The translations under genes were made by a program, and so were the position numbers. The notes beneath the pieces were generated by a model, which saw nothing but the letters and a program-made list of their open reading frames with translations, did no database searches and had not been told where the DNA came from. This document shows positions 3,682-40,836 of a DNA stretch of 50,775 nucleotides, one piece after another (position 1 is the stretch's first letter; every line of letters begins with the position of its first letter). Source of the DNA: a virus (Duplodnaviria; Caudoviricetes); the IMG/VR virus record IMGVR_UViG_3300031823_000009, positions 1 through 50,775 of that record; one strand, written 5' to 3'.

Positions 3682-3827
3682 GGCATTTTCCTTTCTGATT
3701 GTTCAATTTCCCACGGGAAAGCATGCTTTTTCTCGTGAGTCGCACCGAATCGACACCGTACGCCATCCGCAACAGTTTTCCCGCAGGCGCAAACTTCATC
3801 CCACTCACCATTCGATTTCAGCCCCAT
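3663..3827 (-). CDS. Small Cys/His protein (54 aa, unlisted) with two PWE motifs
   Basis: GAGGTG RBS; MGLKSNGEWDEVCACGKTVADGVRCRFGATHEKKHAFPWEIEQSERKMPWEHTP; fills the gap after the primase. Confidence 0.6.
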   Translation of the reverse strand: MGLKSNGEWDEVCACGKTVADGVRCRFGATHEKKHAFPWEIEQSERKMPWEHTP

Positions 3828-5869
3828 TTCGGCACCTCAATCGACCAAGGCATAATCAAAGCATGCTTTTTCCTGTCAACGCCGTTAATCGGGGCATATA
3901 CGGCTAGGTACGGACACCCACGCATCATACGCAAATAGCCGCTGTCAAGCAAGCCCTTTAAACCGTCCTTGCCAAAAATTCGCAGTGCGGCGTCTCGATT
4001 GATGACATAACCCGGCGCGTCCCCTTCAAGTATTTTGCCGCCAAGTTCGTGCACACTCTCGAATTTGACGATTTGGCCAGCCCGCAAAGCATCCATGCCC
4101 TCGGCTACCGCGCCAGGCAACATCGCAGCAAGTCTGACTGCCGCGGATTGTTCGGTTTCCTGCCGGGTGGGAGCAATCTCGCGTCTGAACACATTGACCG
4201 TAGTCGTACGTCCTTTGCTGTCTAGACCATAGCTTTCCGATATGATTCGGCCAAGATAACTTTTTGGTCTCGGCGCGCCACGGGCTTTTCCGCAATCGAT
4301 CGAAACGGCATCCTGCCTCCCAGCGGTAACCCGGTACACAAAACCGGAATTGCCGGATTTAGCGCCATTGCCTTTTTGAAATGCATCTTCATTGCCAAGT
4401 GGCAGGTGATCCGTGACCACGAGAGCTACGTTCATACGTCGAGCTATGGATTTGAGGATGAACATGGCTTTCAGGACGCTTTCGGTGTCATTGTCGGCGA
4501 AGCACAACCCGCTAGCTCCCCACGTGTCTAGCACAGACAGTCCAACTGTCTTGCCCATGGCTGCCATTGCTTGAATCTGTGCGATAGCTTGCCGTTCGAA
4601 CGCTAACGGCTCATTAATGGCCGGAACTAAATGGAAGCGGTCGGCAAGTTCGCGACCATCCGGACGCTGCCTGAGAAGGTGCCGCACCCGGCGTTCGGTT
4701 CCGTACTCGTCTTCTGCGGCAATCCATAATACGTGACCGCCGGGGCACTCCACATCAGCGTCAAGCCATGGGGTACCAGTGAGGTAGCTCACAGCCAAAT
4801 CGGTCACCACGGTTGATTTGCCGGCCCCTGAATGGCCAGTAAAAAAGTGGACTTCACCACATAGAATCCGTTGGTAGAGGAGCCACGGCAGTTCATTCGT
4901 GTTGTCGTCTAAGGAAATTTCAAAACCGGTCCGCGCAACCAAAGTTGGCGCGCTCCATGCATCCAGGAAAGCATGCTTTAATATGCGGCGCCCTGTAACG
5001 GCGCCCATGATCAGGTTGCCGCGAAGCACGGGAAGCTGATCATGCCTGGCGATCTCCTCGCCGAGCTTCCGGCCGCCAACAGCTTCGTCGAGGCCATGGC
5101 CAGCTTCGATTATTGCTTCTTCAATTTCGTGACGTACACACATGCCATGCATTTCGGCAAATTTCAACACGCCAACAATCGAAAAAATCACAGTTCCGCG
5201 GCCTTCCGTACGGCCCATCAGTTCTTGCTTAAGTAATCCAAGATAGCGCTGTGCAGCGTCACGGCCGGCTTGCCATTCATCCTGTGTTTGCGGCACGGCT
5301 TCCTGCAGTTCTTCGTCATTGCATGTTTCGTGTTCGGCGCTGAGGCGCAATGACGTACCTGCGAGTACGGGGACTTTCGCAAGGATATCAATCAGTTGCG
5401 CGGCAGTGATTCGCGGCCATTCGCCATCCCAATTTTCCCATTCATATGGCTCTCCCGTGTCTTTGTGAGGGCCGAAAGCAACAAACTGACCGCCCATAAG
5501 TTGGAGCTTCTCGCCGCTAGCGAACGTAAACGTACGGCTCTTGACAGGCGCATCGACTAAGAAAAAAGGAATTAAGAAGCGTGGCTTCCGGCCCCAGCGT
5601 ACCGGAATGTCTCGCCCTAGCACGTCACGGAATGCCTGCAAAAGCTGTGAGGCGAGCGCTATGTGACTCACGTCCACATCAAAGCCGGATAAGCCTCGAT
5701 CGCCGCAGCGCAGCCCTACAGAGCCGGCGCCAGGGTGTGGAACTGGTCGCGTCCAAACGTTCCAGCCCTCCCCGATCGGGGCCTTGGTGCCTTTGGCGAT
5801 TGCCAATGGAAAGAGGCCACGCGCAATCGCGGCAGCCCAAAAATCTTGAATGGTGGCGGGAAGCGTCAT
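3818..5869 (-). CDS. Bifunctional primase-polymerase (Prim-Pol) fused to AAA_25/RepA-type helicase
   Basis: N-terminal LFPL..GTKAP, GFDVD, GQFVAFGPHKDTGEPYEW; Walker A GHSGAGKS; Walker B VLDT. Confidence 0.88.
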   Translation of the reverse strand: MTLPATIQDFWAAAIARGLFPLAIAKGTKAPIGEGWNVWTRPVPHPGAGSVGLRCGDRGLSGFDVDVSHIALASQLLQAFRDVLGRDIPVRWGRKPRFLIPFFLVDAPVKSRTFTFASGEKLQLMGGQFVAFGPHKDTGEPYEWENWDGEWPRITAAQLIDILAKVPVLAGTSLRLSAEHETCNDEELQEAVPQTQDEWQAGRDAAQRYLGLLKQELMGRTEGRGTVIFSIVGVLKFAEMHGMCVRHEIEEAIIEAGHGLDEAVGGRKLGEEIARHDQLPVLRGNLIMGAVTGRRILKHAFLDAWSAPTLVARTGFEISLDDNTNELPWLLYQRILCGEVHFFTGHSGAGKSTVVTDLAVSYLTGTPWLDADVECPGGHVLWIAAEDEYGTERRVRHLLRQRPDGRELADRFHLVPAINEPLAFERQAIAQIQAMAAMGKTVGLSVLDTWGASGLCFADNDTESVLKAMFILKSIARRMNVALVVTDHLPLGNEDAFQKGNGAKSGNSGFVYRVTAGRQDAVSIDCGKARGAPRPKSYLGRIISESYGLDSKGRTTTVNVFRREIAPTRQETEQSAAVRLAAMLPGAVAEGMDALRAGQIVKFESVHELGGKILEGDAPGYVINRDAALRIFGKDGLKGLLDSGYLRMMRGCPYLAVYAPINGVDRKKHALIMPWSIEVPKWG

Positions 5870-6977: not shown

Positions 6978-7145
6978 TTACTCCTCGATAATTTCGAAAG
7001 AATCCACGCGTAATGTTTTATCGATAAAACATCCACGTGCGACGTAGATAGGGATTTTATTCGCCAAATGAAATTCTGCTCGTTCACGGGAATCAAACAG
7101 ACCGTGCACTGCGTTTCGATCCTTCTTTTCGACGAGCTTAAACAT
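6978..7145 (-). CDS. Hypothetical protein
   Basis: Start MFKLVEKK follows the leader ACGTCAACAGATGGAGATCGAAATG. Confidence 0.65.
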   Translation of the reverse strand: MFKLVEKKDRNAVHGLFDSRERAEFHLANKIPIYVARGCFIDKTLRVDSFEIIEE

Positions 7146-7203
7146 TTCGATCTCCATCTGTTGACGTGTGTAGTTCCAATGGTTTGTCATTTTGATTTTC
7201 CTT

Positions 7204-38948: not shown

Positions 38949-39881
38949 GTGCAAGTCATCGATCGAAGTTTGCAGCCTTCACAATATTGGCCCGGCCTCT
39001 ATGCGTTGTTTGGTCTGGACTATGAAAGGCTGATGCCGGTCTATCCGCAATTTTTTGATTCAAAGCCCAGCGAGAAGGCTTTCGAGGAGTTCATGACGGA
39101 ACGCGCCGGCCTTGGTCTCGCCGTGCAGCAACCGGAATTGGAGCCCGTTCAGTTCGACGTGCCGAACGAAGGCTATCGGACGCAAGTCACGCATGCAAGC
39201 TATGGCCTCGCCGTGGGGATTTCACGCGAAGCGAAGGACGACAACCTATACGAAGATGTTGGTTCCCGCATGATGAAGGAACTGGCATTTTCGGCTCGGC
39301 AGACTGAGGAATACATTGCCCACGCGCCATTGCAAGTTTCCGTGGACGCCGTGAATGGCGTTCGAGCTGACGGCGTTCCGCTCGGGTCTGCGGCGCATCC
39401 AACCGCCGTCGGCGCGCAATCGAATTTGCTGGTCGCCGCAAACGTCTCTGAACTGGCCTTCGAAAATGCCGTCATTCAAATCTCGTACACACGCAATGGT
39501 CGCGGCTTTGTAATCAATGTCTTGCCTAAGCGCGTCATTCTCTCTCCGGAAAGCGGTCCGGAAACACGGCGCATCCTCGGATCGCCGTTGCAGTGGAACG
39601 CTCAGACCAACAATATTAACGTCCTGCGTGCCACCAATGCATTGCCGGAAGTGGTCGAAACGCCGTACCTCGTGGACAAGGACAATTATTTCGTCCAAAC
39701 TAGCGAGCAGGACAAGGACAACGGTCAAGGCTTTACGTTCTGGGAGCGCTCGCAGCTCGAAACCCGCGAAGACAGCAATTGGTCGAATCAAGCGTCGCTC
39801 ATCGCACTGTGGTTCCGCTGCGCCGCATCTGTCATCGACTGGCGTACCGTGTTTGTGAGCCCGGGTGCCGACAACGTTTAG
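38949..39881 (+). CDS. Major capsid protein (Mu gpT-like HK97-fold family)
   Basis: GAGGAG + GTG start; WPGLYALFGLDY, SEKAFEE, ISREAKDDNLY, ADGVPL.SAAHP, DWR..F.SPGA. Confidence 0.9.
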   Translation: MQVIDRSLQPSQYWPGLYALFGLDYERLMPVYPQFFDSKPSEKAFEEFMTERAGLGLAVQQPELEPVQFDVPNEGYRTQVTHASYGLAVGISREAKDDNLYEDVGSRMMKELAFSARQTEEYIAHAPLQVSVDAVNGVRADGVPLGSAAHPTAVGAQSNLLVAANVSELAFENAVIQISYTRNGRGFVINVLPKRVILSPESGPETRRILGSPLQWNAQTNNINVLRATNALPEVVETPYLVDKDNYFVQTSEQDKDNGQGFTFWERSQLETREDSNWSNQASLIALWFRCAASVIDWRTVFVSPGADNV

Positions 39882-39903
39882 CAATCCACAGGGTAATTAA
39901 TTC

Positions 39904-40188
39904 ATGAATAATCAATCACGTGGCATTGGTTGGGCCGTTAAGCAAATGCACGATGGCGCCAAAGTTCGCCGTACTGGTTGGAACGGAAAGGGGATGTTCC
40001 TTTTTCTTGTTCCCGGTTCGCGTTTCAAAGTTAACCGATCTCCACTTCTTGGTATTTACTCAGAAGGTACGGAAATTGACTATCACCCACACGTTGATAT
40101 GAAGACAGCGCAGGGTTACATCGTGCCGTGGCTGTGCTCACAGGCGGACTTACTGGCAACAGACTGGGAACTCGCCGACAACGTCTAA
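39904..40188 (+). CDS. tad2: DUF2829 / Thoeris anti-defence Tad2-like sponge protein
   Basis: GWAV..M..G.KVRRTGWNGKGMFLFLV...PWLCSQADLLATDW, the DUF2829 signature. Confidence 0.8.
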   Translation: MNNQSRGIGWAVKQMHDGAKVRRTGWNGKGMFLFLVPGSRFKVNRSPLLGIYSEGTEIDYHPHVDMKTAQGYIVPWLCSQADLLATDWELADNV

Positions 40189-40204
40189 TGTTTCACGTGA
40201 AACA
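40189..40204. promoter_or_regulatory. parS: parS centromere-like site (perfect consensus)
   Basis: TGTTTCACGTGAAACA, intergenic; palindrome extends over 40187-40206. Confidence 0.85.
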
Positions 40205-40212
40205 TTCGCCCC

Positions 40213-40836
40213 ATGGGTGAACCGGTTCACACTACAAAGCCTAAGTTGCGCCCTTACGAAACGTGGGGTGCGTGCTCCCGTTGCAATGCCAGAGTTCCCT
40301 ACAAAACTCTTGGGCGTGAGCGGTTAACGGGCTTGCTCGTCTGCACGCGATCGTCAGGACGCGCCGTACGGCCGTGCTTCGATCCTTGGCCGCCCGTGTA
40401 CGATTTTCAGGTGTCGCCAGATAAATCGATTGACCCGCCGCCAGAGCCCCTTCCGCTGCGCTACAATCTTGACGACATATGGGGGAGTGGACCGTCATCC
40501 GGAGCGCCCAGCGTCTTCGCTGCGGGGCCTAAGGCAGCTCCGGATGACGCCACGCGGCTTGCTGCACTTCTTTCGGCGCCGCCCTATTATTCAACGCTGG
40601 GCAAGACGGCATCGTTCACCGGCATTCAGGCGCTTGCTCAGCCTGTCGCGACAGAAGTGATGAACTTGCAAACCTTCGTGCCTTCGGATTATGATGGCAC
40701 GTTCATTCCGTCCAGCTCCGTGCGGACCGTTGTGCCTCCTTCGGAAAGTGCGGAGCTGGCCGGCGTGAACACGACGGACAAGGATGTTAACGATCCGGTA
40801 CTGTCGCCTCCGTGGGCTACGCGCGTAGGAGTGTAA
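40213..40836 (+). CDS. Hypothetical protein with N-terminal Zn-binding Cys motif
   Basis: CSRC...GLLVC...CFDP; Pro-rich tail; typical of genes downstream of this capsid type. Confidence 0.7.
   Translation: MGEPVHTTKPKLRPYETWGACSRCNARVPYKTLGRERLTGLLVCTRSSGRAVRPCFDPWPPVYDFQVSPDKSIDPPPEPLPLRYNLDDIWGSGPSSGAPSVFAAGPKAAPDDATRLAALLSAPPYYSTLGKTASFTGIQALAQPVATEVMNLQTFVPSDYDGTFIPSSSVRTVVPPSESAELAGVNTTDKDVNDPVLSPPWATRVGV

Follow-up and report, generated by a model that had tools for sequence, protein, structure and literature searches.

The capsid junction and its parS sequence

This analysis concerns a short palindrome situated between two late genes of a soil phage, represented by the IMG/VR virus record IMGVR_UViG_3300031823_000009, whose core is identical to the chromosomal-type consensus of parS, the centromere of the bacterial ParABS partition system. 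The record, analysed at its full length of 50,775 bp and referred to below as the window, has direct terminal repeats and an estimated completeness of 100%, and the phage that it represents is lytic-looking, with a genome of 50.8 kb. According to a review (PMC7022226), parS lies near oriC in most bacteria, and its consensus TGTTNCACGTGAAACA is common to most bacterial phyla and missing from Enterobacteriaceae, Pasteurellaceae and Mycoplasmataceae.

In the window, the rightward late operon starts with the major capsid gene, and the following features are found at its downstream junction (positions of the window):

38949-39881, plus strand: major capsid gene (Pfam Phage_capsid_4, 1.2e-10; PHROG major head)
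39867-39881, plus strand: left copy of a 15-bp direct repeat, GCCGACAACGTTTAG, at the end of the capsid gene, flanking the Tad2 insertion
39904-40188, plus strand: Tad2-like gene of the anti-Thoeris type (Pfam PF11195, 4.4e-23)
40174-40188, plus strand: right copy of the 15-bp direct repeat, GCCGACAACGTCTAA, with which the Tad2-like gene now ends (last codons and stop)
40187-40206, no strand: perfect 20-bp palindrome AATGTTTCACGTGAAACATT (AATG...CATT), which almost fills the 24-nucleotide (nt) spacer between two genes
40189-40204, no strand: chromosomal-type parS consensus TGTTTCACGTGAAACA, 16 of 16 bases exact, single exact copy in the window
40213-40836, plus strand: gene for a protein of 207 amino acids (aa), family not assigned by Pfam or PHROGs, directly downstream of parS
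40217-40230, no strand: second palindrome, GTGAACCGGTTCAC, within the first codons of the 207-aa gene

The 20-bp palindrome opens with the AA of the TAA stop codon that closes the open reading frame (ORF) 39904-40188; the 16-mer follows immediately and is separated by 8 nt from the ATG at 40213. An earlier note on this DNA, made from the letters alone, had described a perfect, intergenic parS site within a 20-bp palindrome, in one copy. The site, its palindrome and its singularity are borne out, since no second match exists in the window with up to three mismatches, and 'intergenic' is nearly right: it applies to the 16-mer, whereas the AA of the palindrome lies within a stop codon. From base composition, arithmetic gives about 1e-5 exact matches of the 16-mer per 50-kb window, whereas the search with up to three mismatches has no significance of its own, as 26 of 100 shuffled sequences yielded one match or more. 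Neither the half-site GTTYCAC (9 found, 12.4 expected) nor the hexamer CACGTG (13 found, 16.6 expected) is enriched in the window.

Exact parS sites across viral contigs

The exact parS sequence is a non-random component of viral contigs. It is present in at least 137 stretches of IMG/VR, compared with 2 and 21 stretches for two control palindromes of the same composition (reversed and inside-out, respectively), which amounts to an excess of at least 6.5-fold to 68-fold. More specifically, a census of the flanks of 160 distinct exact sites (loci L002-L138, both arms pooled, with T on the other arm) gave the extended consensus AA-TGTTTCACGTGAAACA-TT, with A at position -1 in 61% and at position -2 in 56% of the cases, compared with a background of 28%, and this bias fades by position -4. 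The full AA...TT form is found at 20 of the 160 sites (12.5%), where chance matches would show it at about 0.3-0.6%. As these flanks lie outside the 16-mer that was searched for, they are independent evidence for a single class of sites that includes the one in the window, which is itself flanked by AA...TT. Its left AA doubles as a stop codon, and two of the three closest relatives have AG there.

The viral parS sites also avoid genes, with 51 of 106 sites (at 80 loci with flanks) lying outside called ORFs when 16 would be expected. At 22 loci, five of which are phi29-like phages with 2-4 sites each, the 148 ORFs lying up to 3 kb from a site included no ParB or ParA. Likewise, ParB_N was detected in none of 50 parS-bearing viral records (0/50), a statement of lower sensitivity because PF02195 misses divergent ParB-like proteins such as those of the DUF6551 type.

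As a side observation, two contigs unrelated to the window each hold an array in which five exact parS sites are packed into about 0.8-0.9 kb (L025, 2657-3444; L065, 3001-3928), both of them adjoining a gene for a small terminase of the Sf6 type, with no ParB or ParA found in the flanks that were fetched.

Distribution of the site within the phage family

The family was sampled with a capsid search of IMG/VR that returned 112 relatives, of which 80 loci were kept, and with a search for the 207-aa protein, which gave 34 viral and 25 metagenome loci; the homologues of this protein start at the same residues. An exact parS was found at three of the 80 capsid loci (L139/L219, L140/L220 and L141/L221), which are also the nearest relatives of the window phage (capsid 98-99% identical) and are called clade mates here. 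In all three, the site and the next 14 nt are identical to the window at 30 of 30 positions and the flanking DNA is 89-92% identical, so that parS is unchanged among lineages whose flanking DNA differs by 8-11%. The site is thus confined to a shallow part of the family, and it is most likely young there, having been gained recently by one lineage comprising this genome and three near-identical relatives.

Whole records were scanned as well, with up to two mismatches, in 50 relatives, 27 of which are at least 90% complete (two of the three clade mates are fragments). One record requires separate mention. In G061, of 98,428 bp (locus L253), a member of this family, whose capsid is 91% identical, is joined to an unrelated phage-like half with an exact parS of its own at 92004 and a copy with two mismatches at 87271. 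The half that holds parS has a GC content of 59%, encodes GcrA, RecT, DUF1376 and HNH, and shares with the window only a methyltransferase-like match. The record is likely a composite assembly; it was treated as a composite or another phage and was not counted as an independent second gain of parS.

Two other palindromes of the window can be set beside the parS palindrome. The arms of GTGAACCGGTTCAC resemble the inner arms of parS less one base, and this palindrome is retained beside parS in the clade mate G053 and is missing from the next relatives. The window's other perfect 20-bp palindrome, ATGTTTTATCGATAAAACAT, is at 7013-7032 within a small ORF of the minus strand (6978-7190). It shares its outer arms (ATGTTT/AAACAT) with the parS palindrome and was considered as a shared operator, but the spacing differs, it lies inside the small ORF, and it is absent, with up to three mismatches, from 50 relatives including G053; this reading was rejected.

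The Tad2 insertion

The Tad2-like gene is an insertion between the capsid gene and parS that is present in this genome only and missing from that position in L139-L141. Accordingly, the distance from the capsid gene to the next gene of the operon is 334 nt in the window and 27-30 nt in the three clade mates, in which the capsid stop codon directly abuts parS. The insert covers 39882-40188 and is flanked by the 15-bp direct repeat, whose copies agree at 13 of 15 bases and of which the clade mates carry a single copy, the capsid gene of L219 ending in GCCGATAACGTCTAA directly before parS. The Tad2-like gene thus owes its final codons to a duplication of the end of the capsid gene. The palindrome was spared by the insertion and is still intact directly before the next gene. 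Also within the insert is a match to a sigma-70-like promoter (39885-39912), and the insertion with its flanking duplication and promoter match has the classic layout of a moron.

The slot after the capsid gene

The junction between the capsid gene and the next gene is hypervariable across the 80 loci and is a recombination hot spot. The contents of this slot are:

6-nt gap: 10 of 80 loci
75-150-nt spacer: 31 of 80 loci
parS spacer: 3 of 80 loci
1.2-1.6-kb insert with a minus-strand gene of about 300 aa: 20 of 80 loci
other inserts of 176-903 nt: 14 of 80 loci
slot cut off: 2 of 80 loci

Spacers were inspected in a subset of the 31 loci of the second class and in eight metagenome loci, and they contain GC-rich hairpins followed by T-runs (L222, L223, L224, L228, L232, L250, L283-285, L288, L291, L294, L297 and L300), with whole-fragment folding energies of -27 to -36 kcal/mol in L222, L223, L224, L228, L232 and L250. 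Other cargo of the slot (L235, 3706-3957, minus strand; L244, 1790-2452, plus strand; L218) comprises an Acb2/Tad1-hairpin-like gene and an endonuclease VII-domain gene, the latter possibly a homing endonuclease. Since relatives carry Acb2/Tad1-like and endonuclease VII genes there, the junction can be described as a hot spot for anti-defence and mobile genes.

The minus-strand gene found in 20 of the 80 relatives, which occupies, between the capsid gene and the late gene after it, the very position that parS has in the window, is an orphan ParB-like gene, with examples at:

L151, 5053-5946, minus strand: orphan ParB-like DUF6551 gene in the slot
L173, 5034-5930, minus strand: orphan ParB-like DUF6551 gene in the slot
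L229, 2816-3712, minus strand: orphan ParB-like DUF6551 gene in the slot

Its product of about 300 aa matches DUF6551 at about the Pfam cut-off and PHROG 1033 ('ParB-like partition protein') with E-values down to 2e-11. The motif GRHR is invariant, and VDGRHR is present in all but two of 34 aligned homologues. An AlphaFold model of the protein is confident (predicted local distance difference test score, pLDDT, 87), and a fold search with this model retrieved Noc, Caulobacter ParB, KorB and Spo0J over about 210-250 aligned columns, at E-values of 1e-4 to 1e-3; at the sequence level, the profile of the protein reached only E ~0.8 against the chains of the PDB.

The ParB-like gene and parS appear to be mutually exclusive among the genomes examined, as far as these were searched. 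The profile of the ParB-like protein matched its positive controls, G072 and G059, and gave no match in the window, in the complete clade mate G053, in G052 or in G054, the nearest relative without parS; conversely, the whole-record scan found no canonical parS in genomes with the ParB-like gene. The closest sequences within the cassettes are 5-6 mismatches away from parS, no link between the two was established, and the idea that parS is a remnant of such a cassette was discarded. Nor was a cognate site of the ParB-like protein identified in the cassettes: inverted TGTCAA/TTGACA elements upstream of the gene have variable spacing and resemble divergent -35 boxes, and a near-palindrome at its 5' end overlaps the conserved peptide (F/L)PWE and is inseparable from coding constraint.

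Gene content and host

Scans of the 49 ORFs of the window against Pfam and PHROGs assigned a helicase, a primase-polymerase/AAA_25 protein, a family A DNA polymerase, a Gp2.5-like single-stranded DNA-binding protein (SSB), an exonuclease, two methyltransferases, the large terminase, the major capsid protein, a head-closure/connector-type protein and a tail fibre. The same scans gave no match to ParA, ParB or an integrase, and six-frame searches of the window found no PF02195 (ParB_N), PF00589 (Phage_integrase), PF13614 (AAA_31, ParA-type), PF00239 (Resolvase) or PF01381 (HTH_3), on which grounds the phage looks strictly lytic. A six-frame search of the window for DUF6551 was also negative, and is uninformative alone because its positive control was silent too. 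The earlier note's statement that no ParA, ParB or integrase can be recognised therefore holds, also against profile searches for a cryptic ParB or integrase, with the qualification that the lack of ParB characterizes this genome and not the family, in which one relative in four (20/80) encodes the orphan ParB-like protein in the same slot. No tRNA genes were found in the window.

As a further side observation, the 12-bp palindrome AAAGCATGCTTT is present three times near the start of the primase-helicase gene (3718-3729, 3858-3869 and 4968-4979) and five times in the clade mate G053; it may be an operator or an origin element of the early region.

Leads to the host are few. No cultured phage matched the window in blastn, and the best capsid matches in cultured phages are less than 36% identical, their hosts being mostly Proteobacteria and cyanobacteria, with one Bacillus phage. 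A Caulobacter-like host (the earlier note had mentioned such cells in connection with MipZ and PopZ) is not indicated at such distances. The NCBI label of one homologue of the ParB-like protein gives a metagenome-assembled genome of Planctomycetota as its source, which is a weak lead only.

Comparison with known systems

In its 16 bp, the window's site is identical to the parS of chromosomal ParABS systems, from which it differs in its setting, being carried on a phage, far from an origin-proximal parAB operon and with no cognate ParB or ParA on the replicon. The closest precedent is found in Bacillus phages. One study (PMC2731898) describes five parS sites in the phi29 genome and a Spo0J-dependent entrapment of the phage in spores, and cites earlier work in which the parS sites of phi29 and Nf are read by the host Spo0J (Meijer et al. 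2005 EMBO J, as cited in PMC2731898). In the literature searched for phages that lack ParB and use the host parS, phi29 and Nf were the only described case found.

The window phage resembles phi29 in that a phage without its own ParB carries the chromosomal parS sequence of hosts, and in that the phage encodes neither ParA nor a lysogeny module. Otherwise the two differ considerably: phi29 is a protein-primed podophage of 19 kb that infects a spore former and pairs parS with Spo0A boxes, whereas the window phage is terminally redundant, has 50.8 kb and encodes a DNA polymerase A, a primase-helicase and a Gp2.5-like SSB. Entrapment in spores is not to be taken for granted in its case.

Plasmid-prophages have partition systems of their own, such as ParAB-parS of P1 and the parABS of actinobacteriophages. 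The common element would be a ParB-family clamp that is placed on phage DNA through a palindromic site (putative in the window). These elements have their own ParB and their own site sequences, often in many copies, whereas the window has no ParB and carries the host consensus once; a cassette with a parA-parB operon beside its own centromere is not present in the window. The relatives of the window phage are different again, as they encode the orphan ParB-like DUF6551 protein and have no canonical parS.

Finally, the operon position of the palindrome is that of the terminators that follow capsid genes, as exemplified by T-phi of T7, an intrinsic terminator after gene 10. The inspected relatives have such terminators at this position, whereas the palindrome of the window is without a GC-rich stem and a U-run.

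A putative loading site for host ParB

The reading that we favour, with a confidence that leans towards it without being high, is that the palindrome is a genuine chromosomal-type parS, a putative loading site for the ParB of the host, which the phage lineage gained recently. Binding of ParB in vivo, and all effects downstream of it, we infer from the identity, the census and the precedent described above. Where the host has a canonical ParABS system, ParB dimers with bound CTP would load at the single site and slide onto the flanking phage DNA and the late region, and the phage DNA would then be treated as a chromosome origin or as origin-proximal cargo. ParA would position or segregate it, and SMC may be recruited. 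The purpose of the site would presumably be the positioning or persistence of phage DNA, and, by analogy with phi29, the payoff could be that unpackaged genomes persist or spread in slow-growing, dividing or dormant cells (carrier state). The site is located in the late operon, which would be silent until late in infection, so that a ParB complex could sit there undisturbed. According to the review cited above (PMC7022226), ParB needs no more than one parS for loading and for positioning, and the expression of nearby genes can be influenced by a ParB complex formed at one such site. The borrowing of host ParB that the earlier note had proposed is in part supported by the phi29 precedent, the parS excess in viral contigs, the shared flanks and the lack of ParB_N in the 50 records. 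The particular functions named there, among them episome segregation, SMC loading, effects through MipZ and PopZ and silencing of the capsid operon, are hypothetical.

Several observations weigh against this reading. First, the window phage has one site, whereas phi29 has five and the phi29-like contigs have several. Second, conservation is shallow: the absence from close relatives that the earlier note would have counted against the site is found in part, in that the three nearest relatives have it and the other 77 of 80 capsid loci show nothing parS-like at this place within three mismatches; the site is also absent from the whole records of more distant members. Among the metagenome loci, parS is found in L281 only, which is the same contig as L140, and 24 of 25 are without it; beyond the clade mates, the whole records gave one match with two mismatches (G057) and the one exact site of G061. 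Third, the signal of constraint within the clade is weak, because perfect bins of 30/30 also occur elsewhere (5 of 30 bins in L219, and 3 of 21 aligned bins before the alignment of L220 breaks down). Fourth, no relatives of the capsid or of the ParB-like protein were found in 185,579 species genomes (one genome each), and close cultured phages are lacking as well, which leaves it an assumption that the ParB of the host reads this class of site; the ParB_N count, moreover, has the limited sensitivity mentioned above.

Alternative explanations

The alternative that survives best is a coincidence or neutral scar, in which turnover of the slot would have left a short palindrome that equals parS and has no ParB-related role for the phage, incidental binding of ParB being possible. 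The hypervariability of the slot across the 80 relatives (6-nt gaps, 75-150-nt spacers, inserts of 0.2-1.6 kb) and the restriction of the site to one shallow clade are consistent with such an origin, as is the observation that the window's other perfect 20-bp palindrome (7013-7032) is shared by no relative. Furthermore, the control palindromes do arise by chance in IMG/VR (the 2 and 21 stretches), and even at about 1e-5 exact matches per window a few chance matches are expected over very many windows. Against this stand the excess of parS over those same controls, the AA...TT flanks, which chance matches would rarely share, and the persistence of the site across lineages whose flanks have diverged by 8-11%; on balance we regard a scar as unlikely.

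A second alternative, which is a little less probable still, is a cis-regulatory element of the late operon that acts independently of ParB and stands in for the terminator of the relatives. Variants of this explanation are an RNA hairpin for mRNA stability or read-through, a hairpin for the translation of the downstream gene, and an operator for another protein that reads a CACGTG-centred palindrome. The GC-rich hairpins and T-runs that the inspected relatives hold at the same position argue for it (-27 to -36 kcal/mol in the six folded), as do the start codon 8 nt away, without any Shine-Dalgarno-like sequence in the gap, and the second palindrome at 40217-40230. The palindrome itself, as RNA, gives an AU-rich 8-bp hairpin that folds better than shuffled sequences (z = -2.9, 2/200). 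This hairpin is weak, however (-6.4 kcal/mol), and is followed by CGCCCC with no U-run; it has neither the GC-rich stem-loop nor the U-run of an intrinsic terminator, and the terminator scan made no call. In addition, a wider fold is not significant (z = -1.2), there is no match in Rfam, no regulator of the HTH_3 type was found, and ten relatives have a 6-nt gap with no hairpin at all. A cis-element would also leave unexplained why the sequence is exactly that of parS, with flanks of the parS class.

A more far-reaching version of the ParB-based reading is that placing a ParB-type clamp on phage DNA, or interfering with the host ParABS system, would be a selected trait of the family, which alternates at one locus between its own orphan ParB/Noc/KorB-like DUF6551 clamp and the ParB of the host, borrowed through parS by a lineage that gave up the gene. 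In a sub-variant, the ParB-parS complex would be a protein roadblock that replaces the terminator after the capsid gene. We consider the alternation, jointly with the sub-variant, to be rather doubtful.

The weakest alternative is sabotage, in which many replicating phage copies of parS would titrate ParB (and partners such as SMC, ParA or division regulators) away from the host origin and disturb segregation or division to the advantage of the phage: it draws on the same evidence for a real parS (the IMG/VR excess and the flank preference), on a segregation role being less obvious because the phage looks strictly lytic, on the possibility that the relatives' orphan ParB-like protein in the same slot targets the same host pathway, and on published abstracts according to which ParB levels are critical for cells, but each genome offers a single site, which makes a weak sink early in infection, and nothing separates sabotage from the segregation reading, so that it seems quite improbable.

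Implications for phage biology

A single site with shallow conservation, taken alone, is a modest finding, and the kind of system is already known from phi29, to which the window would add an unrelated, lytic-looking soil phage. The census (at least 137 stretches versus 2 and 21, the shared AA...TT and the absence of ParB_N from 50 of 50 records) is a testable lead across the collection. Within the family, the occurrence of an orphan ParB-like gene or of the host parS in the same slot of different relatives provides a natural pair of genotypes for comparison. Should the alternation be true, the single site would mark one side of an evolutionary exchange between an own clamp and a borrowed one, among strictly lytic phages whose host does not sporulate.

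If the ParB of the host does load at this site, the borrowing of host partition machinery would not be peculiar to phi29 and to spore formers, and unrelated, lytic-looking environmental phages would share the strategy. It would then bear (i) on the persistence of phages in slow-growing soil bacteria, including the carrier state and pseudolysogeny, and (ii) on the roles of ParB clamps beyond chromosome segregation.

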